Assembly: GCA_049970895.1 (NCBI GenBank)
Contig: JBMFMB010000026.1
Location: 1 to 16,603, forward strand
Source: Candidatus Bathyarchaeia archaeon
GTDB lineage: Archaea; Thermoproteota; Bathyarchaeia; Bathyarchaeales; Bathycorpusculaceae
Direction: 5' to 3'
Length of the DNA: 16,603 nt
Both the position numbers and the translations under genes were made by a program. A model generated the notes under the pieces. The model worked only from the letters and a program-made list of their open reading frames with translations. It did no database searches and was not told where the DNA came from. Of this stretch, positions 1 to 9,592 are shown one piece after another (the first letter of the stretch is position 1; the number at the start of each line of letters is the position of its first letter).

Positions 1-898
1 CAAGCAATTTCCCCGCAACTTCAACAACAGAAGATCTATCCACCTTAAAAATTGGAAAACCCTTTCCAGCCAAATAATCATTCACATACTGTTCCTTAAA
101 AACATCCACCACAATAGCTGGTGTTCCCTGCAGCGCCGCTTCCCGCGTGATAGTTCCCCCAGCCCCAACAAACAAATCCGCCTGCGCCACCAAACTCGCA
201 GAGTCCACAAACTCCTTTGGAACTACAACATCTTTGATGATTCTTCGGCGGTACCTTGGTAGAAAAACAACATTGCCCAACCGCGTCAACTTCTTCGCCA
301 ACGTGACAGAGGAAAATCTTCTCTTAACATAAACAGCCCTCTCCTCCATCTCCCTAACCACAATAAGCGGTTTTCCAAAATCATATTTCATCAAAGGCTT
401 AAACCCCTTAATCCACGCAACCTCATCAACACCATCGAAGCGGATTATTTCACCCTCAACATTATACTTTTGCAAAACTCTTTCTGGGATAGCCTTAGAA
501 ACGACAATATAGTCCGTTAGGGGTAAAGTAAGCCTATGCACAGCATCAGCATAAGGCGTATCAAGAGTTGTTATCGTCGGAATTTTCAAACCAAAAGCCA
601 CCCGAATCTGGTCAACAGAACCATGCGAAATGGCAACGTCTGGAGCGTTTTCTCCAAAAATTTTGCAAAACAATAGCTGACGCCGAACTCCCTCCTTAAG
701 TCTGGAAAGCAAGGATTTTGGGTTATATTTTCCAACGACTATGAATTCTTCGTCTAAGAGTTTTGCAAGTGGTATCGTGTCCGGATGTTTGCGAGTGGTT
801 AATATAATTTCGTGTCCCATTTCCCTAAGTCTTCTTGCTATGGCAACACCGTACCGCACATGCTTCCCAGTGCAAGCGTCATACCAAACACGCATCAT
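1..898 (-). CDS. DUF354-family protein (GT-B glycosyltransferase-like), 3'-truncated by window edge
   Basis: Absent from the ORF track because it has no stop inside the window. Manual minus-strand translation from ATG 898: MMRVWYDACTGKHVRYGVAIARRLREMGHEIILTTRKHPDT...AISHGSVDQIRVAFGLKIPTITTLDTP...ADLFVGAGGTITREAALQGTPAI, typical of DUF354. ATGA overlap with the upstream stop (895-897). Confidence 0.85.
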   Translation of the reverse strand, partial: MMRVWYDACTGKHVRYGVAIARRLREMGHEIILTTRKHPDTIPLAKLLDEEFIVVGKYNPKSLLSRLKEGVRRQLLFCKIFGENAPDVAISHGSVDQIRVAFGLKIPTITTLDTPYADAVHRLTLPLTDYIVVSKAIPERVLQKYNVEGEIIRFDGVDEVAWIKGFKPLMKYDFGKPLIVVREMEERAVYVKRRFSSVTLAKKLTRLGNVVFLPRYRRRIIKDVVVPKEFVDSASLVAQADLFVGAGGTITREAALQGTPAIVVDVFKEQYVNDYLAGKGFPIFKVDRSSVVEVAGKLL

Positions 899-1977
899 TC
901 ACACCAGCAATACATTTCTCCAATAATTTTGCCGTCTTTAACCAGTTTTGCCGGAGCATCAATGTGGCGAATCCAGTAAACGTTTTCGGGCAAAACATTA
1001 TATTTTGGGATTTCTGGAATGCTCTCCTTAAAAGCAAGCTTTACATACAAGTATGGAATGTTTGCATAATAATCCCCGCGCAGAACTTTGCTAGCGTAAG
1101 AGAAGAAGAAAGATGTTGTAAACATTCTCGCGGCATTAATCTCTGTAACGCATGGAACGCCCTCCCTGTTCTCTTTCAAGTCCACACACGCTAATCCATT
1201 AAATTTTGGGTCAATGGCTAAAACAGCCTCCGTTGCAATCCTATTCACATTATCGTTGTGAATGGTTTTCTGAACAGCAGGTGTGCCAGTCACTCCAGAA
1301 GGCGCAAGGTGCGGATATATGTATTCGATGCGTTCCCTAGCCATAGACGTAACAAGCTCTCCATCCTTCCAGAGGCTATGAAAACCTATGTTCCTTCCAG
1401 GCAAGTGTTCTTGGGCTATGAACTCCCAATTCATGCCGCGCGCCCTCCAATAATTAATCCATGAAAGGGCTGTCTCCTTGTTGTGGGCAGGCGTGCTTCC
1501 CCTCCCACCAGCACCATGCCGCGCCCTAATCCATATGGGACTGCCAAACTCCTCAAAGGCTTTATCAACATCCTCCTTGCTGCGAATTTCCATGGATTTT
1601 GCCACAGGAACGCCTTTTTTCATCCAGATTTTAGCCGACTCAAGCTTGTCTTGACAAATTTTCACAGTTCTCTTCGACGGCAAGAACATATTCGCCTCAA
1701 TTTTCTCGCGATTTTCTGAAATAACAGCCACTTCAATATCTGTTTGTGCATGTAAAAATTCAGCCTTCTCTTTGCGTATAATCTCGTTTAGCCTATCAAT
1801 ATAGCCCTCTTCCTCAGCCCTTGAAATCAAATACCTCTTATCAGTCGGCGCCAAATAAATAAAATTTGCATTCGCCTCCGTACCCACAATGAAAATTTTT
1901 TCCGGGGCAAGGCATAAAGACATTATAAAGTTTATTCCTGCAGGTCCACCAGCACCCGTTACCACGATTTTTTTCAA
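895..1977 (-). CDS. ATP-grasp ligase (CarB/PylC-like carboxylate-amine ligase)
   Basis: N-terminal VVTGAGGPAG, then CQDKLES, RARHGAGGRG, IAQEHLPG, CVDLKEN...EINAAR ATP-grasp motifs. TTG start with a GGTGGT SD just upstream. Confidence 0.85.
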   Translation of the reverse strand: MKKIVVTGAGGPAGINFIMSLCLAPEKIFIVGTEANANFIYLAPTDKRYLISRAEEEGYIDRLNEIIRKEKAEFLHAQTDIEVAVISENREKIEANMFLPSKRTVKICQDKLESAKIWMKKGVPVAKSMEIRSKEDVDKAFEEFGSPIWIRARHGAGGRGSTPAHNKETALSWINYWRARGMNWEFIAQEHLPGRNIGFHSLWKDGELVTSMARERIEYIYPHLAPSGVTGTPAVQKTIHNDNVNRIATEAVLAIDPKFNGLACVDLKENREGVPCVTEINAARMFTTSFFFSYASKVLRGDYYANIPYLYVKLAFKESIPEIPKYNVLPENVYWIRHIDAPAKLVKDGKIIGEMYCWCE

Positions 1978-2065
1978 AGCACCACCTTATTTATTGCCGA
2001 AAATAGTGAGTGAGGGCGATTTTTAATATTTTGTGTATTCTAAAGTGAGCATAAACCTCGGAAGG

Positions 2066-2072
2066 TTTATAC
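2066..2072 (+). promoter_or_regulatory. Putative TATA box of the vapBC operon (probably leaderless transcript)
   Basis: TTTATAC preceded by a purine-rich GGAAGG (BRE-like), about 24 nt upstream of ATG 2096. Confidence 0.45.
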
Positions 2073-2095
2073 GTTTGTTATACTAAAAAGCAAAC

Positions 2096-2326
2096 ATGTC
2101 GCAAACAACAACCATAGCCGTCCGCGTAAAAAAGGAAATCAAAGAAACCCTCGAAAAAGCTGGCGTCAATATTTCTGAGACTGTGAGAAAACATTTAGAA
2201 GAAATATTCTGGAAACTCCAACTTAAAAAGGAAACGGAAACTATGAGAAAAATTCTTGAAAATGTCAAGCCCTCTGCCAAAGGATTCGCTGAAAAATCCG
2301 TGAGGGAGGACCGTGAAAGTCACTGA
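2096..2326 (+). CDS. vapB: VapB/CcdA-like ribbon-helix-helix antitoxin
   Basis: 76 aa with N-terminal TTIAVRVKKEIKETLEKAGVNISETVRKHL (RHH-like) and C-terminal SVREDRESH. Overlaps the downstream PIN gene by 14 nt. Confidence 0.8.
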   Translation: MSQTTTIAVRVKKEIKETLEKAGVNISETVRKHLEEIFWKLQLKKETETMRKILENVKPSAKGFAEKSVREDRESH

Positions 2327-2699
2327 TTCCTCCGCCTTAATCAAGTATATAGCAAAGGAGGGCTGGGAAGAAGTCGAAAAACATCTAATAGAAGGCTGTG
2401 TAACGCTGGATCTAGCTTTAAAAGAGACGGCAAATGCGCTGGTTGAAAAGATGCTTAGAAAAGAGGCTGACCTTAATACTGCAAAGAAAATAATGCTACA
2501 CATGCCAAAAATAGTCAAACTAACATCACAGACGCAGCATTTCCAAAAGGCTCTAGAAACAGCGATAAAACATAAATTAACAATCTACGACGCCCTCTTT
2601 ATTGCTCTCGCGATGAGCATTAACGCTCCGCTGTTAACATCCGACAGAGCACAAGCAGAAATATCTAAAAAACACGGGGTAATAACAATTCTTGTATAA
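2313..2699 (+). CDS. vapC: VapC PIN-domain ribonuclease toxin
   Basis: Acidic PIN residues in VTDSSALIK, LKETANAL, TIYDALFIALA and LLTSDR. GTG start with a GGAGG SD. Confidence 0.9.
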   Translation: MKVTDSSALIKYIAKEGWEEVEKHLIEGCVTLDLALKETANALVEKMLRKEADLNTAKKIMLHMPKIVKLTSQTQHFQKALETAIKHKLTIYDALFIALAMSINAPLLTSDRAQAEISKKHGVITILV

Positions 2700-2701
2700 A
2701 A
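2695..2701 (+). promoter_or_regulatory. Putative TATA box for tRNA-Val
   Basis: TATAAAA starting 26 nt upstream of the tRNA 5' end and overlapping the vapC stop codon. Confidence 0.45.
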
Positions 2702-2720
2702 CGTTGCATTATAGAGATAG

Positions 2721-2795
2721 GGGCCGGTCGTCTAGCTTGGTTAGGACGCAGCCCTTACGAGGCTGAGGTCGCCGGTTCAACTCCGGCCCGGCCCA
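2721..2795 (+). tRNA. tRNA-Val (anticodon TAC), intronless, CCA not encoded
   Basis: Cloverleaf: acceptor GGGCCGG/CCGGCCC, anticodon arm CAGCC-CTTACGA-GGCTG (TAC at 2756-2758), T arm GCCGG-TTCAACT-CCGGC, discriminator A2795. Confidence 0.97.
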
Positions 2796-3012
2796 CTCAA
2801 GAACTTTCTCTTTTTCAAAATAGACCGTAATTAAAGAAAAGGATTTTTGAAGCTGTTTTAGGGTTGATATGTTGTTTCTGGCTTGAAATGGACAAAATTG
2901 TTCTAATCATAGTTTTCGGTTTCCTGAAGTTTCCAATTAAAGCTTTTAAAATTTCAAATTTAGTAGCAAGCTAACGCGCGTTAATCTTAAATCCCATAAG
3001 CTTTAAACTTTA

Positions 3013-3282
3013 GTGTGGGCTTTGTTGACCGAAAACCCTGAGGAGGAAAGGCTTCCAGTTTCAGAGAAAGTTAAGGTTTTACGCTTCCAAACCCTTTTTA
3101 AGGGTGGGAGATGGTGGGCTGCAGCCGGCCTATTCGAGGCTTTTGGGAGGAAGCACATAGCCCTATACCTATGGTTTAGGCGTGGAGACGCTTGGAAGAG
3201 GCGGCAAAAGTTTGTTTTTAGGTCGCGGGAGGAGTGGGAGAAAGCCAAAAAGGCCATTGAAAGCTTTGCAGCGGAGCTTTAG
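3013..3282 (+). CDS. Small protein with PC4/PUR-like (whirly) putative ssDNA-binding fold
   Basis: 89 aa, rich in aromatic and basic residues. LFEAFGRKHIALYLWFRRGDAWKRRQKFVFRSREEWEKAKKAIESF follows the PC4 pattern of beta strands followed by a W-containing helix. Stops 3 nt before the helicase ATG. The true start may be TTG 3022 or 3025. Confidence 0.6.
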   Translation: MWALLTENPEEERLPVSEKVKVLRFQTLFKGGRWWAAAGLFEAFGRKHIALYLWFRRGDAWKRRQKFVFRSREEWEKAKKAIESFAAEL

Positions 3283-3285
3283 GAT

Positions 3286-5154
3286 ATGCTGGCTGAGAAA
3301 CGCTACATCTGGCATCCGCTTTTGAAGGAGAAGGCTGTTGAGGATAGGCTATACCAGAACAAGATTTTAGAGAAAGCAAGGCGATGTAACACGCTTGTTG
3401 TTTTGCCAACAGCCCTTGGAAAAACAGTCATAGCCCTACTTTTGGCGATAGAAAAAGCCGAGGAAGGCAAAATATTCTTTCTGGCTCCCACAAGACCATT
3501 GGTACAGCAGCACTATCAAACCTTTCTGGATAAAACATGGTTTGAAGAGGGTGAATTAGCCCTTGTAACTGGGCGCTACCCGTCAAACCAGAGGTCAGCC
3601 CTATACAAAAGAGCGAAGGTTGTTTTTGCAACTCCCCAGTGTGTTTGGAACGACTTAAAAAGCGGGCTTTTAAGGCTTGAAGATGTTTCGCTCATAATTT
3701 TTGATGAGGCTCATAGGGCTAGGGGAAACTACGCCTACGTTGGAATAGCCACCTACTATTTTAGGCAGTGCCGCAAGCCCCTAGTTTTGGGTTTGACAGC
3801 CTCTCCGGGCGGCAGCGAAGAGAAAATAGCTGAAGTATGCAGAAACCTTGGCATAACAGCCATAGAACACCGAACAGACGAGGATAAAGACGTTAAGCCC
3901 TACATACAGCCTATAGAAGTTGAATGGCGTAGGTTAAAGCCTCCAGAACAGTATTTGGCCGTGAGGGATAGGCTTAGGCAAATGCTGGTCGAGCGCGTAA
4001 AGGGATTGCAGGCCCTCGGCGTTTTAACAGACAAGCAGCCAGCCTTCATAACGAGACGAGACCTGGTGGAGCTTAACGACGAGCTTCAGCGTAGGCTTGG
4101 AAGCGGAGAAGGCGGATACATATACCAGCTTAAGGTGGAAGCCACAGCAGCCCTAAGCATAGCCCACATGATAGAGCTCATTGAATCGCAGGGGCCTGAA
4201 ACCCTTGAGGCTTTCATTGAGAAAAGCCTAAAACGCATGGCAATGGAAGGAAGTAGAGGCCACAAATCAATCTTAAATGACCCCTTGTTCATAGAAGCCA
4301 AAAAAGCGCTTATAAGCTGCATGGCAGCGGAAAATCCCAAAGTTAAAGAGCTGGTAAAAGTTTTAGAAGGCCAGCTTCAGGCCAAGCCTGATTCAAGGCT
4401 TATTGTTTTCACACAGTACCGTGACACAGTAAACGCCCTGCTAAAAGCCCTAAACAGCAATTCAAGGCTCAGGGTTGAACGCTTCGTAGGTCAAGGTGAA
4501 CGTGAAGGCGATCCTGGAATGACCCAAGAACAGCAGCGGGAAGTTCTTGAAAAACTCCGTAATGGCGAAATCAACGTGCTGATAGCCACAAGCATAGCTG
4601 AGGAAGGCTTAGACATCCCAGAAGTTGACCATGTGGTGTTTTATGAGCCTGTTCCAAGCGAGATACGCTACATTCAGCGCAGGGGCAGAACAGGAAGACG
4701 CGTAGCAGGAAAAGTAACAATTTTAATAGCCGAGGGCACCGTAGACGAAGCCTTCTATTGGTCAAGCATTTCAAGAGCTAGAAAAATGAAGCGGATAATA
4801 GGCCAGCTAAACAGAAAACTGCCAGAACTGCTGAAAGAAAAAGCCAAGCCAATAATAACCCTAATGGACTACCAGCCACAACCGCAACAAGCCACGACAA
4901 GCATTCAATTGTCACTCCCTCCGCCTAAGAAGGAGCTTTGGAAACCACAGGCAATACAGACTAAGGGCTTAAGCCAAGCCCTAAAATGGCTAATGGAAAA
5001 CCTACCAAACCAAACAATCACAATTGAGGAGGTTGTCAAACAAGCATGGGAGGAGGAGGGCATAGAAAAGGCAGCAGTTGAAACAGCCATATGGCGCCTA
5101 GCACAACAAGGCCAAATATACCAACCAGAACCAGGAAAAATAAGAAAGCTGTGA
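3286..5154 (+). CDS. Hef/FANCM/Mph1-family SF2 helicase lacking the ERCC4 nuclease, with a C-terminal winged helix
   Basis: Motifs RLYQ, LPTALGKT, APTRPLVQQH, ATPQ, FDEAHRA, LGLTASPG, VFTQYRDT, FVGQ, ATSIAEEGLDIP and QRRGRTGR. These are followed by a Q/P-rich linker and a ~60 aa domain ending GQIYQPEPGKIRKL. Confidence 0.92.
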   Translation: MLAEKRYIWHPLLKEKAVEDRLYQNKILEKARRCNTLVVLPTALGKTVIALLLAIEKAEEGKIFFLAPTRPLVQQHYQTFLDKTWFEEGELALVTGRYPSNQRSALYKRAKVVFATPQCVWNDLKSGLLRLEDVSLIIFDEAHRARGNYAYVGIATYYFRQCRKPLVLGLTASPGGSEEKIAEVCRNLGITAIEHRTDEDKDVKPYIQPIEVEWRRLKPPEQYLAVRDRLRQMLVERVKGLQALGVLTDKQPAFITRRDLVELNDELQRRLGSGEGGYIYQLKVEATAALSIAHMIELIESQGPETLEAFIEKSLKRMAMEGSRGHKSILNDPLFIEAKKALISCMAAENPKVKELVKVLEGQLQAKPDSRLIVFTQYRDTVNALLKALNSNSRLRVERFVGQGEREGDPGMTQEQQREVLEKLRNGEINVLIATSIAEEGLDIPEVDHVVFYEPVPSEIRYIQRRGRTGRRVAGKVTILIAEGTVDEAFYWSSISRARKMKRIIGQLNRKLPELLKEKAKPIITLMDYQPQPQQATTSIQLSLPPPKKELWKPQAIQTKGLSQALKWLMENLPNQTITIEEVVKQAWEEEGIEKAAVETAIWRLAQQGQIYQPEPGKIRKL

Positions 5155-5185
5155 AAAAGGATTCACTTAATTATTTAATTGCATA

Positions 5186-5209
5186 CAGTTCGGCTCGCTC
5201 AAGAACTTT
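5186..5209 (+). repeat. Internal degenerate copy of the tRNA-Val 3' end plus downstream flank (att-like relic)
   Basis: cagttcggctcgctcaagaacttt versus 2784-2807 cggcccggcccactcaagaacttt: 19/24 identical, all five differences are transitions. Both copies are followed by a T-run and caaaa. Confidence 0.65.
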
Positions 5210-5587
5210 TTCAAAAAGGTACCTTCCTAAGAGAAAACAGTTGGTTTGATGCATGATTTGGGCTTTGCTTTTGGTTTAGGGATATTGAGGGTTACATTTT
5301 TAGATGTAGACTTTTTCTATAATGAGGTTTATGCTTTTTGCATATCCGAGGAATCTATATGTACTGTTTTCTTTTGCTATGCTTCTTATAGGAGCCCTAA
5401 ATAGATGGATGCATATGCCGATAACTGTGAAAAGGAAGCTTTCAGTAAAGTGGCAGATAGAGGGAGGGGGGTAGGTCTAAGATGAGCTCCAGGATATGCA
5501 TCTTTAAGCGCATCCTCAACAAAAGTTTATCTTTATCTAAGAATAAAAAGAAGTTATGGCGGCGCGCAAACTGTCAGGAATCGAAGG

Positions 5588-5812
5588 AGACCACTTCAAA
5601 CCGTAATTCTTAACTAAACCAATGTAATAGTCATAGACAACCAAACTTAGCTAAGGAAAGCAAAGCCCTCATAATATGCGCTCGCTTACAATCGCCTTAA
5701 AGCTGCAACTCGCTCAAAATACCCCTCAGCAGACAACCAACAAAAACTTCTCAGCGTAACAGCGCCTTTGAGCAACCTTCTCCTCCAATCTCTGTTTTAA
5801 ATACTTCCTTAA
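5588..5812 (-). pseudogene. Frameshifted, truncated fragment of an archaeal tRNA-targeting tyrosine integrase (core-binding region)
   Basis: Joined across two frameshifts (~5740, ~5640) and one stop (5697-5699) it reads LRKYLKQRLEEKVAQRRCYAEKF / GCLLRGILSELQL*GDCKRAHIMRALLSLAKF / VYDYYIGLVKNYGLKWS. From recall this resembles the 'KR.H.M.AL..L.KFLG.YD.....YGLKWS' segment of SSV-like integrases found beside tRNAs in TACK archaea. Its position next to attR fits. Confidence 0.6.
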
Positions 5813-5844
5813 ATAAATTTCAGGCTCCTTTCAAAAAGGGCAGC

Positions 5845-5875
5845 TACAAGGCTGAGGTCGCTGCCCAGCCCACCA
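5845..5875 (+). repeat. attR: decayed 3' half of tRNA-Val
   Basis: 5845-5861 tacaaggctgaggtcgc matches tRNA 2756-2772 at 16/17. 5863-5873 gcccagcccac matches 2786-2796 at 10/11. About 12 nt of the T arm are deleted. It ends in A-CCA followed by a T-run. Confidence 0.85.
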
Positions 5876-5885
5876 AATTTTTCGC

Positions 5886-6653
5886 TTAGCGTATGATGTC
5901 GGGTAGAAGCTCCAAAATTCTTCTAGGGGAGAATACGCTCAAGGTGACTGTTGTCAGCTTTTTGCCAACCTTTGGGATTAACCCCACAGCATCTGTTCCA
6001 AGCTTGCATATGATGGCGTGTTCAAAAAGCCCCAGTTGTTCGATTATTATGGTGTCATTTTGGCATCTTGCGTTTTTCAGTGCGGTTTTTATTTCTTGCT
6101 GGGTTGCGCCTAAAACTATTAATCTGTCAAGGAGCGACTTTGCCCATCTTTTGTAAAGCTTCAGCTGATTTTCGGCTAACGCAGCTTCTATGCGTTCTCT
6201 GTGCAAGTGAATAATTTTGGCTGTCAAGGGCATGTTTTCGCAGAATCCATAAAGCTCAGCGATTTTTCTAAGGGCGATTTTTCTCCCGTCAGCTAACTGA
6301 GCTTGCAGATGTTGCAGCGAAATCGCAACGCCTATCATCTTTGGCGTTGTTAATCCGATGTCAAGTTGAAGCTGATCTTCGCTTTTACATAAGCCTATGA
6401 TGTAACCCCTCACAGTTGAAAATCTCGTTAGGTTACCAGCATGAGTTGGGCATAATCCTATCGTGTTTTCAAGATAGTTTAATGCCACTTTTTCATCTTC
6501 ACCCGAAAATGTTAGTTGAATCCAGCCTCGTGTCGTAGCTTGAATTTTTTCTATTTTAACCTTTAACCCTTTTAATGACGACTTTAAGTGTTCTTCAACA
6601 AGTTTTAGTTGATCGTCGTTGTAGATTTTTGCGGATAGCGTTACGGTAGGCAT
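5886..6653 (-). CDS. DUF2110-family conserved archaeal protein
   Basis: 255 aa with GWIQLTFSGEDEKVALNYL and IEQLGLFEHAIICKLGTDAVGLIPKVG. Lies downstream of tfe and the HD gene, the usual context for this family. Confidence 0.8.
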   Translation of the reverse strand: MPTVTLSAKIYNDDQLKLVEEHLKSSLKGLKVKIEKIQATTRGWIQLTFSGEDEKVALNYLENTIGLCPTHAGNLTRFSTVRGYIIGLCKSEDQLQLDIGLTTPKMIGVAISLQHLQAQLADGRKIALRKIAELYGFCENMPLTAKIIHLHRERIEAALAENQLKLYKRWAKSLLDRLIVLGATQQEIKTALKNARCQNDTIIIEQLGLFEHAIICKLGTDAVGLIPKVGKKLTTVTLSVFSPRRILELLPDIIR

Positions 6654-7180
6654 TTGCAGTCTCCGATTATTGTTGACATTTCTTGATGCAGCTTTCTTAT
6701 TCTGGCTATTGCTGATGGGGGCAGTTCTTTTGAAAGTTTTTCTATAGTCTTTTCGATGGGGACTCTTTCTGAGCCTTCGATGAGTTTGTCTGCGTAGGCA
6801 ACAATTTTTTCTTCAAGAGTTTGGGGGATGTAAATGTCCTTCGGCCATCCTAAGCTTTTGGCTTCTCTTTGGGTTATGCCACCGCCAACGTGTCTCTTGA
6901 TTATTGAGATTATGGGTTCTGGTAAGCCTAGGCTTTTGGCTATTTGCATTCCCGCCACGGCGTGGTGGACGCTGTGGGTTTTTGATCTTCCAATGTCGTG
7001 GAGAAGGGCGCCTACCTCTACAAGTTCGAGGTTCACGTCCAATCCTTTTTCCTTGCATGCTTTTGCAATTTCAACCGCGAGCTTTGTTACTGCTTCACAG
7101 TGTCTTATCACGTTTTCTGAGCAGCCGCTTTCCCGTAAAAATTTTAGGGCTTGTTCTCTTGTTGGGAGCTTTTCACTCAC
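6641..7180 (-). CDS. HD/HDIG-domain metal-dependent phosphohydrolase (TIGR00295-like)
   Basis: VIRHCEAV, GALLHDIGRSKTH, HVGGGI and PQTLEEKIVAYADKL motifs. Confidence 0.9.
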   Translation of the reverse strand: MSEKLPTREQALKFLRESGCSENVIRHCEAVTKLAVEIAKACKEKGLDVNLELVEVGALLHDIGRSKTHSVHHAVAGMQIAKSLGLPEPIISIIKRHVGGGITQREAKSLGWPKDIYIPQTLEEKIVAYADKLIEGSERVPIEKTIEKLSKELPPSAIARIRKLHQEMSTIIGDCKCLP

Positions 7181-7703
7181 CCAGCTCCTTCCTCAACTGT
7201 TCAACTTTCTCGGTTAAGACTTTGACTATTTTGTCGTTATTGTAGTGCATTAGTGGCTTGCCGCATGTAGGGCATTTGAAAACCAGCTCGACAGCCTCTT
7301 CGAAGGGTATTCGTTTGCATCCTGGCGTGTAGCAGTAGTAGAAGTCGTGGTTTTTCTCGTATTCCAAGCGAATGTTCAGTTTTTCGAGCACGCGTCGTTT
7401 TTGGCTTAGTATAAAGCCTTCCAGCTGGTCTGGTTGTAGTTTCCAGTGGAATATGAACCATCCGGTTTTGGGATCTCTTGTTCTTCGTAAACTTACTAAT
7501 GAATGGTCGTAGAGCTTGTAGAGGATTTTGCGCACGTTGTTAAGTCTTATGCCAGTTTTGTTTGCCAATTCATCATCCGTTATTTCATTCGAATTCTTTA
7601 GCATCTCAATTAGTTTTACGGCTTCCTCTTCGCCAAGTGCCTCGGCAACCTTCATTAATGTTGCATCATCAATTGTTGATAACATGGTAACCCTTTTCTG
7701 CAT
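7173..7703 (-). CDS. tfe: Transcription factor E (TFIIE-alpha homolog)
   Basis: Winged helix ITDDELANKTGIRLNNVRKILYKLY, then RDPKTGWFIFHW and Zn ribbon CYTPGC...FEEAVELVFKCPTCGKPL. The start may be ATG 7685. Confidence 0.95.
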   Translation of the reverse strand: MQKRVTMLSTIDDATLMKVAEALGEEEAVKLIEMLKNSNEITDDELANKTGIRLNNVRKILYKLYDHSLVSLRRTRDPKTGWFIFHWKLQPDQLEGFILSQKRRVLEKLNIRLEYEKNHDFYYCYTPGCKRIPFEEAVELVFKCPTCGKPLMHYNNDKIVKVLTEKVEQLRKELGE

Positions 7704-7746
7704 CAGTCACTGCATTCCTTCTTACCATATATTTGCAAGCTTTAAT

Positions 7747-8346
7747 TTAAATCTCTTTTCTGGTTTCGGATTCAGAACTAATCTTTCTAACCACTTTTTT
7801 ACCTCTTTTTTGGGGGATTATCATGAGCTTGGCGTTTTCAAAAGTTTTAGCGAGCTCTTTTCCCTCAAAAAATCTGTCAAGAAAGACTGCGAGGCTTGCA
7901 CATTCAGAGTGAGGCTGATTTCCAATTGCCACGTTGAAGTCTGAAACTGCTTCTGAAAAGAATTCGCTGGGAACTTTTTGACTTCCAACGATTACCAATA
8001 TGTCCCTTTTTAGTGCTTTGATTCTCTGTAGCACGTCGCTTGTTTCGATGTTTTCGCCATAGGCTGTTAAGTGGACAACAACTCCGCCTTTGGCTTTCCA
8101 TTCCCTAACAACGTTTTTCCAAGGGGCTCCCATCTCAAAATGGAATGGTCCGCCCCAGTTTTTCACAACTTTTTCCATTGTTGCCTTAACTTTTTCATCT
8201 TCTATATCGGAGAGTATGAATCCTGAGGCTCCTAGGGCTCTGGCAGTTAATGCTACATGGGTTGTTAGACGCAAGTCTCTTTTGGGACGATGTCCCCACC
8301 TTAAAACATAGATTTTCGGCTGCCTTTCAATGTTTGAAGCTTTCAA
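7747..8346 (-). CDS. trm56: tRNA (cytidine(56)-2'-O)-methyltransferase (SPOUT)
   Basis: [41 protein letters not shown] and [21 protein letters not shown]. Start set at TTG 8346, which has a GGTGGA SD, rather than the ORF-track start 8367. Confidence 0.93.
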
Positions 8347-9592
8347 CTTTTCCACCGAACTCTTCAACGCGACTTTTCACTTTTTCAGCGAACCATGGCA
8401 CGGCTTCAAAGGTTACATGGGCAACGTCGCCCTCATATTTTATTTCTTGGACGTCTGCCCGGCTGAAAAGCCACGAGAGGAAAGGCATTGCCTCGTTTGA
8501 AAGTGGAAGGGAAAAAGATGCTTGAACATAATTTCGCAGCGTTCTGGCTATTTCCTCTTTTAGCTGGTCTATGTTAAGCCCGTAAAGAGCTGATATGGGC
8601 ACGGGCTTTGGTGCCTTTTCCTTGAGTTTTTCAAATTTTTGCTGTATCTCCGTCTCAGATAACAAGTCGATTTTGTTTAGGGCTGTTATTATTGGGATGC
8701 CGGAGGCTCCTATGCGCTCTATTGTTTCTAGGCATACAGAGAGCTTCTTTTCAACAGTGGCTAGTGGTTCGCTGATATCCACAACGAGCAGTATAAGGTC
8801 TGAGTATATTGTTTCTTCTAGTGTTGAGCGGAAAGCCTCTATCAGTGTAAGCGGCAAGCGATCAATGAAACCAACAGTGTCTGTCAAGAGAAACTTTTTT
8901 CTTGAAAACTTTACAAGCCTTGTCGTCGTTGAAAGGGTTGTGAAAAGAGCATTGTCTATAGGAACCTCTTCTTCCGTAAGCGCAGTGAACAGCGAGCTTT
9001 TTCCAGCATTTGTGTAGCCCGCCAGCGAGATTGATGGAAAACCCAGCTCGGCCCTACGTTCACGATGCAGAACTCGTTTTCTCCGTATTTTTCTAAGCTT
9101 TTCAATGATGGTTTGTATCTGCCTTTTGACAGTTTCATAGTAGACGTCAACCTCGTATGCCCCAAGTCCCATGAATCCAGGCTGTTCTCCAAGCTTTGCC
9201 AACCGCACTTTTTCCTTAGCCCTTGTCAGCTCGTATTTGAGTTTGGCTAGCTGAATTTGCAGTTTCGCCTCCGTTGTTGTTGCTCTTCTCGCAAAGATTT
9301 CAAGTATAAGTTGGAAGCGGTCCATTGCTTCTACGCCAGTTTCTTTGGCTATGTTGTATGCTTGAACAGGTCTTAACGGATTGTCAAAAATTATTTTCTC
9401 GGCACCGGTTTCCTTCACAAGCTGGGCGAGTTCCTTAATTTTTCCATAACCTATCTGATAGCGGGGATCTGAGGCTCTTATCTGTTCTATTTTGCCCACA
9501 ACGGTATAGCCAGCTGACTCAGCTAGGCTTTTAAGCTCGTCAAGGGTGGATGGTTCAAAAGACCTTCGGCGCTGTACGATTATGGCTTTCGT
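8327..9592 (-). CDS. hflX: Ribosome-splitting GTPase HflX (probable non-canonical ACG start)
   Basis: [15 protein letters not shown]1 [12 protein letters not shown]2 LFTTL, G3 DTVGFI, G4 NKID and SAL. The frame stays open 31 codons upstream of GTG 9499 and encodes the conserved [16 protein letters not shown]. Gene identity is secure; the start position is less so. Confidence 0.9.

Follow-up and report, generated by a model that had tools for sequence, protein, structure and literature searches.

Mph1, Fml1 and FANCM are Hef-family motors without an active nuclease that work at forks and D-loops together with small DNA-binding partners (MHF1/2, RPA). That Hef-family helicases act at stalled forks is established (PMC3905845, PMC4838364), and a helicase-only Hef is known from Thermoplasma acidophilum (taHef; Rohleder et al. 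2016, PMC4838364). Here we describe a nuclease-less helicase of this family from an uncultured archaeon, Candidatus Bathyarchaeia archaeon (assembly GCA_049970895.1), which is encoded directly behind a small protein with a likely PC4-like fold. The two genes occupy positions 3013 to 5154 of contig JBMFMB010000026.1, all 16,603 nucleotides (nt) of which were analysed and are called the window below (contig C26 of the 1.34-Mb, 79-contig assembly, labelled G000); the public runs that contain the locus are hot-spring metagenomes. We argue that the genes form a selected, dedicated operon, which their anatomy supports well, and we give a probability of roughly 0.5 to the reading that the Hef/FANCM-like helicase and its PC4-fold partner take part, alongside RadA-type recombinases, in recombination-dependent replication or repair.

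Judged by the passages of PMC4838364 that deal with taHef, the window helicase resembles it in having a superfamily 2 (SF2) core with an insertion domain, no ERCC4 nuclease and a short post-core region possibly meant for partner binding. It differs in its ending: taHef closes with a canonical PCNA-interacting-peptide (PIP) box, a motif (Qxx[LIMV]xx[FYW][FYW]) present in the post-core linker of 0/29 members of the family studied here, whereas the window helicase continues into a conserved, winged-helix-like domain of ~70 amino acids (aa); the same passages, which were not searched for those terms, contain no PC4-fold partner gene or island location. The Hef of Pyrococcus furiosus and Thermococcus is close enough for 1wp9 to be the best solved match and for the window helicase to pass the 'Hef nuclease' cut-off, yet Hef there carries an XPF-type nuclease and is a core repair gene, whereas here the nuclease and HhH2 parts are missing and the gene is accessory and island-borne. 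FANCM (9el5) is the second-best solved relative, and the difference from the Mph1/Fml1/FANCM group lies in the putative partner, which here has a predicted PC4-like fold, not a histone or OB fold. In its model, this partner shares four antiparallel strands, a C-terminal helix and a similar size with PC4/Sub1, BPSL1147, YdbC and the phage T5 PC4 protein, but it has no detectable sequence relationship to them. Passages of a 2013 survey report PC4 and Pur-alpha as absent from archaea (PMC3575825), and the word 'archaea' was not found in the part available of a 2020 review of PC4-like domains (PMC7549692). The tRNA-integrating islands of archaea, such as those catalogued in Thaumarchaeota (PMC6563490), match those described below in insertion at a tRNA 3' end, a duplicated 3' end at attR, serial integration and variable cargo; they differ in that no integrase was detected in or beside the islands here, the end of which is marked by the helicase pair and a 32-nt tail. 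A full-text literature search, with supplements outside its reach, returned no description of the pair or of such island ends. An earlier reading of the window, made from its letters alone (the sequence-only reading), had not recognised the pair as a described system; this no longer holds for the helicase, since a helicase-only Hef was already described, whereas the PC4-fold partner and the island-end position were not found described and appear to be new.

The small-protein open reading frame (ORF; 3013–3282, + strand, 89 aa, GTG start) and the helicase ORF (3286–5154, + strand, 622 aa, Hef/FANCM-family SF2 without an ERCC4 nuclease) are indeed co-oriented and 3 nt apart, as had been noted before. 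When 41 related genomes were searched with the small protein, 33 had a match, in most cases a 42–51%-identical copy without a helicase beside it. The window's own genome holds such a solo paralogue (G000:C1:132237-132476, - strand; also locus L071 6223-6615), which is ~50% identical and lies directly downstream of S-adenosylmethionine synthetase, and the solo form was found in most genomes of the order that were searched; it may serve Bathyarchaeia as a general DNA-binding protein with the PC4 fold. Across a sample of the class, the small-protein family occurs in 94/401 genomes, and in the window's own family in 46/103. A quick maximum-likelihood tree of 80 distinct small-protein sequences, the basal branch of which is weak (support 71), separates the two forms: one side has 49 rows, 45 of them helicase-linked, three solo and one not assessable, and the other has 31 rows, 28 solo and three not assessable. 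The label 'linked' requires 5 changes on this tree against a mean of 26.2 after shuffling, and none of 500 shuffles came as low, with the window's protein being a helicase-linked paralogue of a family that has no annotation.

The pairing is conserved among metagenome loci. Among 80 metagenome loci found with the alignment of the linked clade, 43 have a small gene that is at least 67% identical; 39 of these extend at least 100 nt downstream, and all of them (39/39) carry helicase sequence from a few to ~35 nt past the stop codon, although at L121 just a 42-residue helicase remnant is left and at L120 the first 126 helicase residues are absent. Nine further loci are also paired, with small genes 49–60% and helicases 59–68% identical. 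An exception is L191, where the small gene is intact and the helicase internally deleted. Comparison of the window with its copies gave ratios of non-synonymous to synonymous substitution (dN/dS) of 0.05–0.10 for the small gene and 0.05–0.11 for the helicase. The sequence-only reading had taken the two genes for a selected, dedicated pair and had proposed a neighbourhood survey of co-occurrence; the survey found the pairing conserved across metagenome loci, and the 39/39 linkage, the split in the tree and the dN/dS values bear the claim out.

The helicase passes the NCBIfam equivalog NF010337 'Hef nuclease' with 616.9 bits against a cut-off of 610, covering profile positions 2–531 of 781 only; positions 532–781, the nuclease and HhH2 part, are missing. 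Pfam recognises both RecA lobes (PF00270, E 7e-23; PF00271, E 1.8e-27) and, at residues 231–335, the helical insertion or 'thumb' domain PF21210 (46.4 bits, cut-off 27). Searched against the PDB, the family profile retrieves the P. furiosus Hef helicase 1wp9 (E 4.8e-169, continuous over positions 12–502), then FANCM 9el5, and then RIG-I-like and Dicer helicases. In the alignment of the family, with 29 relatives that are 53–93% identical, PTALGKT, DEAH, TASPG and QRRGRTGR (SF2 motifs I, II, III and VI) are invariant in 29/29, and all SF2 motifs and the ~70 C-terminal residues are conserved, while the linker between varies; 19/29 members have a weaker [T/S/K/A/P][LIMV]xx[FY] motif in that linker. 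Both earlier statements about this protein, that its helicase motifs are all intact and that it is a nuclease-less member of the Hef/FANCM type, are thus upheld by the invariant motifs and by the NF010337 coverage and the match to 1wp9, respectively. The layout is a core with insertion domain at about residues 5–535, the variable linker and a conserved, winged-helix-like C-terminal domain at about residues 556–615, for which the Pfam winged-helix matches are weak and below cut-off (e.g., MCM4_WHD, E 0.0016) and ESM Atlas gives weak leads at 0.75–0.76, one of them towards MCM winged-helix clusters. Two side observations concern related helicases. The sister genome (G011) has a second Hef-type helicase of ~707 aa, to which a fragment encoded on the 555-nt contig G000:C69 is 97% identical, and helicases 82–89% identical to that of the window (P0047, P0049; locus L189) come from metagenome-assembled genomes labelled at the source as Micrarchaeaceae, 'Ca. 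Terraquivivens tikiterensis' and Nitrososphaeria; such foreign labels reflect either binning or labelling differences or transfer between hot-spring lineages.

For the 89-aa protein, no Pfam, NCBIfam or PADLOC family was found at E ≤ 1, including PC4, DUF2128 and Pur. An AlphaFold 2 model built from a 31-sequence alignment (mean predicted local distance difference test score, pLDDT, 86.7) has strands at residues 21–30, 34–43, 46–57 and 60–69 and a helix at 72–86, a beta-beta-beta-beta-alpha topology that fits the PC4-like fold group (PC4/Sub1, YdbC, Pur-alpha, Whirly). A structure search against representatives placed two PC4 homologues first, BPSL1147 (5a4n; Z 7.6, root-mean-square deviation, rmsd, 2.1 over 66 residues) and that of phage T5 (4bg7; Z 7.4, rmsd 2.1 over 69 residues), followed by Pur-alpha, MoSub1, human PC4 (6ycs, Z 6.5) and YdbC in that order. 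Single-stranded DNA (ssDNA) binders of PC4 or Pur-alpha type make up 5 of the top 7 structural matches, with the top two covering the whole domain, and Foldseek agrees on PC4-type matches at E-values of 0.08–0.3. In the ESM Atlas, the nearest cluster that bears a name is DUF3276 (0.79), which counts as no more than a lead. The model therefore makes a PC4-like fold likely for this protein, as the sequence-only reading had proposed, and the top rank of PC4 homologues in the structure search supports it. A profile search of 1.84 billion representatives collected 266 clusters at E ≤ 0.001; among them are proteins with two such domains in tandem and one (P0252) in which the domain is fused to an AAA+ ATPase, and no Pfam family lies on this domain in any of ten family members scanned.

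Could the helicase simply be the ordinary, vertically inherited Hef of the lineage that happens to stand beside a tRNA gene, with the small ORF unrelated or spurious? Hef-type helicases, counted at E ≤ 1e-60, occur in 133/401 genomes of the class and are near-universal in several of its other families, and two stand-alone ERCC4 nucleases elsewhere in the genome (contigs C9 and C5, PF02732 matches; none in the window) can be read as the split-off nuclease half. Against this, only 8/103 genomes of the window's own family have a Hef-type helicase, the sister genome has an exact empty site, and the small ORF is inherited together with the helicase and shows both conservation and purifying selection. 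Within the genus (14 genomes), full-length close copies were found in G000, G001, G005 (two), G009 and G012; they have only ~2.2 kb in common (window 2972–5190), their surroundings differ, and the module occurs in at least five genomic contexts. A single-copy Hef passed down vertically, which the sequence-only reading had itself raised as the alternative, is not what the 8/103 count and the empty site show, and we consider this explanation highly improbable. On the comparisons made here, the pair is accessory and patchily distributed.

The surroundings of the pair are those of an insertion at a tRNA gene. The target is tRNA-Val(TAC) (2721–2796, + strand; ARAGORN, and Rfam RF00005 at 63.2 bits), which was the sole match in an Rfam scan of 2650–6000. 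Right after it lies a 25-nt left direct repeat (2796–2820, + strand), delimited from the sequence and by aligning it to the right junction and to the site that is empty in G011, the nearest relative and sister genome used for comparison. In a blastn alignment with G011, window positions 46–2820 and 5206–9201 are contiguous with an 11-nt overlap and the flanks are 91–94% identical. The segment absent from G011 is ~2.4 kb long (2821–5205, + strand, with a junction that can be placed anywhere in the repeat) and carries the gene pair only. The helicase stop is followed by a conserved 32-nt tail (5155–5186, + strand), which is unique in the window's own genome, and then by the attR of this inner insert (5187–5217, + strand), made of an eroded tRNA-3'-end-like core (5187–5197) and the 20-nt right direct repeat (5198–5217); other copies have an intact tRNA-like core there. 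Both states were seen in metagenomes: contigs of one run span 2488–5591 (filled form), and in a low-depth contig from a different study 2820 is followed directly by 5227 (empty form).

Beyond this insert lies a non-coding remnant (5206–5862, no strand assigned) that G011 shares at 91% identity and whose ORFs have no Pfam families. In G013, G003 and G007 the tRNA abuts the DUF2110 gene directly, and since these genomes lack 5206–5862 while G011 has it, the remnant represents an older insert. Its attR, at about 5849–5873 (+ strand), is a partial copy of the tRNA-Val 3' half with the T-arm deleted, and the alignments of other genomes resume at 5863. By these alignments the locus is two nested inserts, not one decayed island, so that of the decayed tRNA island proposed earlier the association with the tRNA stands and the single island does not; the island at tRNA-Val here is, by the same evidence, little more than the operon. 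The earlier statement that the pair comprises the only intact genes between the att sites is supported to the extent that Pfam finds no family in the other ORFs between the tRNA and the distal copy, whereas the reported integrase relic was not recovered: of the 9 matches that a read-through search of the whole genome for PF00589 returned at E ≤ 1, none lies on the contig of the window.

Corresponding anatomy recurs at other sites. In G012, a 6.1-kb island lies exactly at the 3' end of tRNA-Ile and contains two ORFs without a known family, a type II methyltransferase and the pair; its right junction is a partial copy of the tRNA end, and the empty site is at ~38190 on G000 contig C12. The 13-nt tRNA 3' end occurs twice in the window's own genome, at the tRNA-Val described here and at the tRNA-Ile on C12. 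Longer islands that close with the pair occur in G009 and in both copies of G005. Chromosomal DNA follows the pair directly in G009, in the contig-C4 copy of G005 and in its contig-C2 copy, the last of these at the DUF2110 site that is also occupied in the window. At this site in G005, the final ~50 nt of the helicase gene and the tail downstream of it are present once more, at 75% identity (G005:C2:7364-7454; L065), between the intact module and DUF2110; the stretch resembles the right end of a further element that carried the module and had integrated at the same tRNA-Val. We compared 40 loci in which the sequence runs through the 3' end of the helicase gene and for at least 100 nt past it, reading tail and flank counts by eye from the sequences. 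The tail is present in 18/40 module copies; among these 18, a tRNA-3'-end-like core follows the tail in 13 by pattern search (≤2 mismatches), is eroded in the window's 3 copies and is of another type in 2, and beyond the core there are at least 12 unrelated flanks. Given the conserved tail, the tRNA-like core and these unrelated flanks, the pair is, as far as alignments tell, the att-proximal terminal cargo of islands that integrate at tRNA 3' ends in hot-spring Bathyarchaeia. Upstream, long contigs end 100–1600 nt before the small gene at many loci (L105, L107, L108, L113, L118, L125, L129, L137, L139, L143; G343:C9; G005:C2), suggesting that a repeated or polymorphic boundary to the left of the module interrupts the assemblies.

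Such a position could mean that the pair is a dedicated module of the element, serving its replication, maintenance or mobilisation; for example, the winged-helix domain would recognise the tail and the helicase would open the DNA for replication, or for excision or integration by a recombinase supplied in trans. The pair always marks the right extremity of the islands, with 32 nt between it and the att core; none of the islands studied has its own integrase; a promoter and the tail belong to the conserved unit; the C-terminal winged-helix domain is conserved; and the PDB title of 4bg7, a top structural match, presents this PC4 homologue of phage T5 as implicated in recombination-dependent replication. 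On the other hand, neither protein has a catalytic recombinase, primase or initiator domain, the tail is absent from 22/40 copies, and the small protein was found on no viral contig, where only one distant Hef-like helicase (35% identity) was seen. The pair has, moreover, survived undamaged and under purifying selection after the other parts of the element were lost, which argues for a benefit to the host. We regard this reading as possible, at clearly lower odds than a role in recombination.

What recurs beside the pair argues for that role in recombination. Divergently upstream of it, a RadA paralogue is encoded at 10/28 metagenome loci with at least 1600 nt of upstream sequence, and likewise beside the pair in G005 and G009. 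Besides two RadA paralogues, which share 55% and 39% identity with canonical RadA, the island of G009 and G005 encodes a ParB-like protein and an XPB-like helicase; canonical RadA is located elsewhere and is 97–98% conserved. The left part of the G009 island adds a split ATP-dependent DNA ligase and an N6-methyltransferase-like gene. This ligase consists of two overlapping ORFs of 158 and 102 aa (G009:C2:1127-1875; L174) and was probably split by a frameshift. A second Hef clade (~707 aa; twice in G011, on C14 and C15, loci L072 and L073, and also in G094) has the operon order RadA paralogue, 108–111-aa ORF, helicase; in G035 and G130 an ORF of this 108–111-aa type precedes the helicase and a RadA paralogue was not detected. 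The small ORF of the second clade has 492 homologues at E ≤ 0.001, all without a name or 'hypothetical'. Its representative P0040 shares with the 89-aa protein only a 26-column local match by hhalign (E 0.017, probability 2.7%), and its AlphaFold 2 model (pLDDT 79) has no clear structural counterpart, with DsbG ranking best (Z 6.0) and a PC4 homologue reaching only Z 3.2.

The same neighbourhoods bear on an antiviral or anti-plasmid role, in which the helicase would sense or unwind foreign nucleic acid in the manner of RIG-I or of Hachiman and DISARM, and the small protein would sense ssDNA replication intermediates. A patchy, island-borne distribution at tRNA hot spots is in keeping with defence, as are a helicase fold common to RIG-I, MDA5 and Dicer, the type II methyltransferase beside a 382-aa ORF in the G012 island, the VapBC pair that adjoins the tRNA here, and the PC4-like anti-Cas9 protein 7jta among the top Foldseek matches of the small protein. 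The 382-aa ORF itself has no Pfam, PADLOC or PDB match. However, the nearest relatives of the helicase are by far Hef and FANCM, the pair contains no effector domain (nuclease, protease, NADase or membrane protein), and the recurrent neighbours, RadA paralogues among them, are recombination, replication and DNA-metabolism genes, not defence genes. In PADLOC-DB 2.0, neither protein has a system-specific full-length match: the best hit of the helicase, PbeA (E 5e-21), aligns residues 350–478 only, which form the generic C-terminal lobe, and the small protein hits 0 families. With matches to generic helicase domains only, nothing specific speaks for defence, which we judge unlikely; among the functions that the sequence-only reading had listed, the third, replication or recombination of the ancestral element, fits best.

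On the recombination reading, which we favour, the small partner would have arisen as a paralogue of the widespread bathyarchaeal protein that stands without a helicase. The helicase would translocate on forks and D-loops like Hef, Mph1, Fml1 and FANCM, and the small protein may bind the exposed or displaced single strand or help to load the helicase, so that the unit probably remodels branched DNA during recombination. The pair would work with RadA-type recombinases, in recombination-dependent replication or repair, and might have served first the element and, after the decay of the element, the host. The ssDNA binding, protein–protein contact, substrate and biological role in this scheme we infer from the protein families.

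Several findings weigh against this reading. The linkage has exceptions: helicases 60–74% identical to that of the window stand without a small gene upstream in G410, G074, G369 and G024, a frameshifted small gene lies beside an intact helicase in G009, and three small genes that the tree places on the linked side have no helicase. RadA paralogues are absent from 18/28 assessable loci and from the window, and none of the public runs containing the locus is an RNA run. The structural matches of the small protein have Z scores below 8, a range where chance arrangements are common, and because of this and of the Foldseek E-values given above, its PC4 fold is likely, not proven; nor does any sequence family tie it to PC4, and a profile search of PDB sequences yielded no significant match (best E 0.19). 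Searches for PF00589, the tyrosine-recombinase profile only, in G000, G009, G005, G012 and G001 found no integrase in or beside any island, and the one match on module-bearing contigs (G005:C2:264758) is ~258 kb from the module. Finally, the divergence of the module within the genus (~83–85% at the nucleotide level) is similar to that of the flanks, and from it vertical descent with relocation and transfer among close relatives cannot be told apart.

Homology between module copies begins at a conserved promoter-like block (2978–2992, + strand; blastn start 2972–2978), which was found in an alignment of five module copies. Its TATA-like box is centred ~27 nt before the start codon, a position that suggests a leaderless transcript. 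Upstream of it, inside the insert, DNA search and alignment identified a dispersed intergenic repeat of 75–85 nt (2880–2962, + strand), for which a miniature inverted-repeat transposable element (MITE)-like element, a regulatory element and a small RNA are candidates; further copies, 81–89% identical, are at G000:C36:366-438, G000:C23:574-647 and G011:C34:2421-2493, two of them near contig starts. The 32-nt tail at the other end is either a terminator or the element's right arm, or it combines the two functions. GC content is 47–48% across the gene pair and 39–46% in adjoining bins, and three ORFs of 50–52 aa at 5091–5474 match 0 Pfam families. Within the older remnant, 78 nt (5393–5470) have a 92%-identical copy at G000:C16:9292-9370, and at 5393 and 5467 contigs of several runs stop or part ways, as they would at the edge of a repeat.

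The flanks are of housekeeping type. Upstream are a DUF354 glycosyltransferase, an ATP-grasp protein and the VapBC pair, and downstream are DUF2110, an HD protein, TFE-alpha, Trm56, HflX, ThrRS and others. The VapBC genes, a VapB-like antitoxin (76 aa, with a weak CcdA-like match) and a PIN-domain VapC (128 aa), occupy 2096–2699 with a 14-nt overlap, directly upstream of tRNA-Val; this region lies outside the insert, because G011, G003, G013 and G007 align across all or part of it.

These results offer a testable partner for a Hef/FANCM-type motor in archaea, and they add a family of likely PC4 fold, with 266 representative clusters and without annotation so far, to a domain of life said to miss the fold. 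They also define to the base a family of tRNA-targeting islands of uncultured hot-spring Bathyarchaeia, the end of which is marked by the pair. A bolder combination, which we hold to be doubtful and somewhat less probable even than defence, is that the pair is a hitherto unrecognised archaeal counterpart of FANCM plus an accessory DNA-binder built on the PC4 fold, that the winged-helix helicase and its partner jointly recognise the conserved tail on the att side and power the replication or mobilisation of mini-islands that have no integrase and hop between tRNA genes with one and the same 3' end, and that the solo paralogue is a general PC4-fold ssDNA binder of Bathyarchaeia. If the pair serves the element, it would represent helicase-based maintenance or movement of islands that have no integrase; if instead it cooperates with RadA paralogues, it would provide a compact model of the way in which translocases of the FANCM type are targeted to recombination intermediates.

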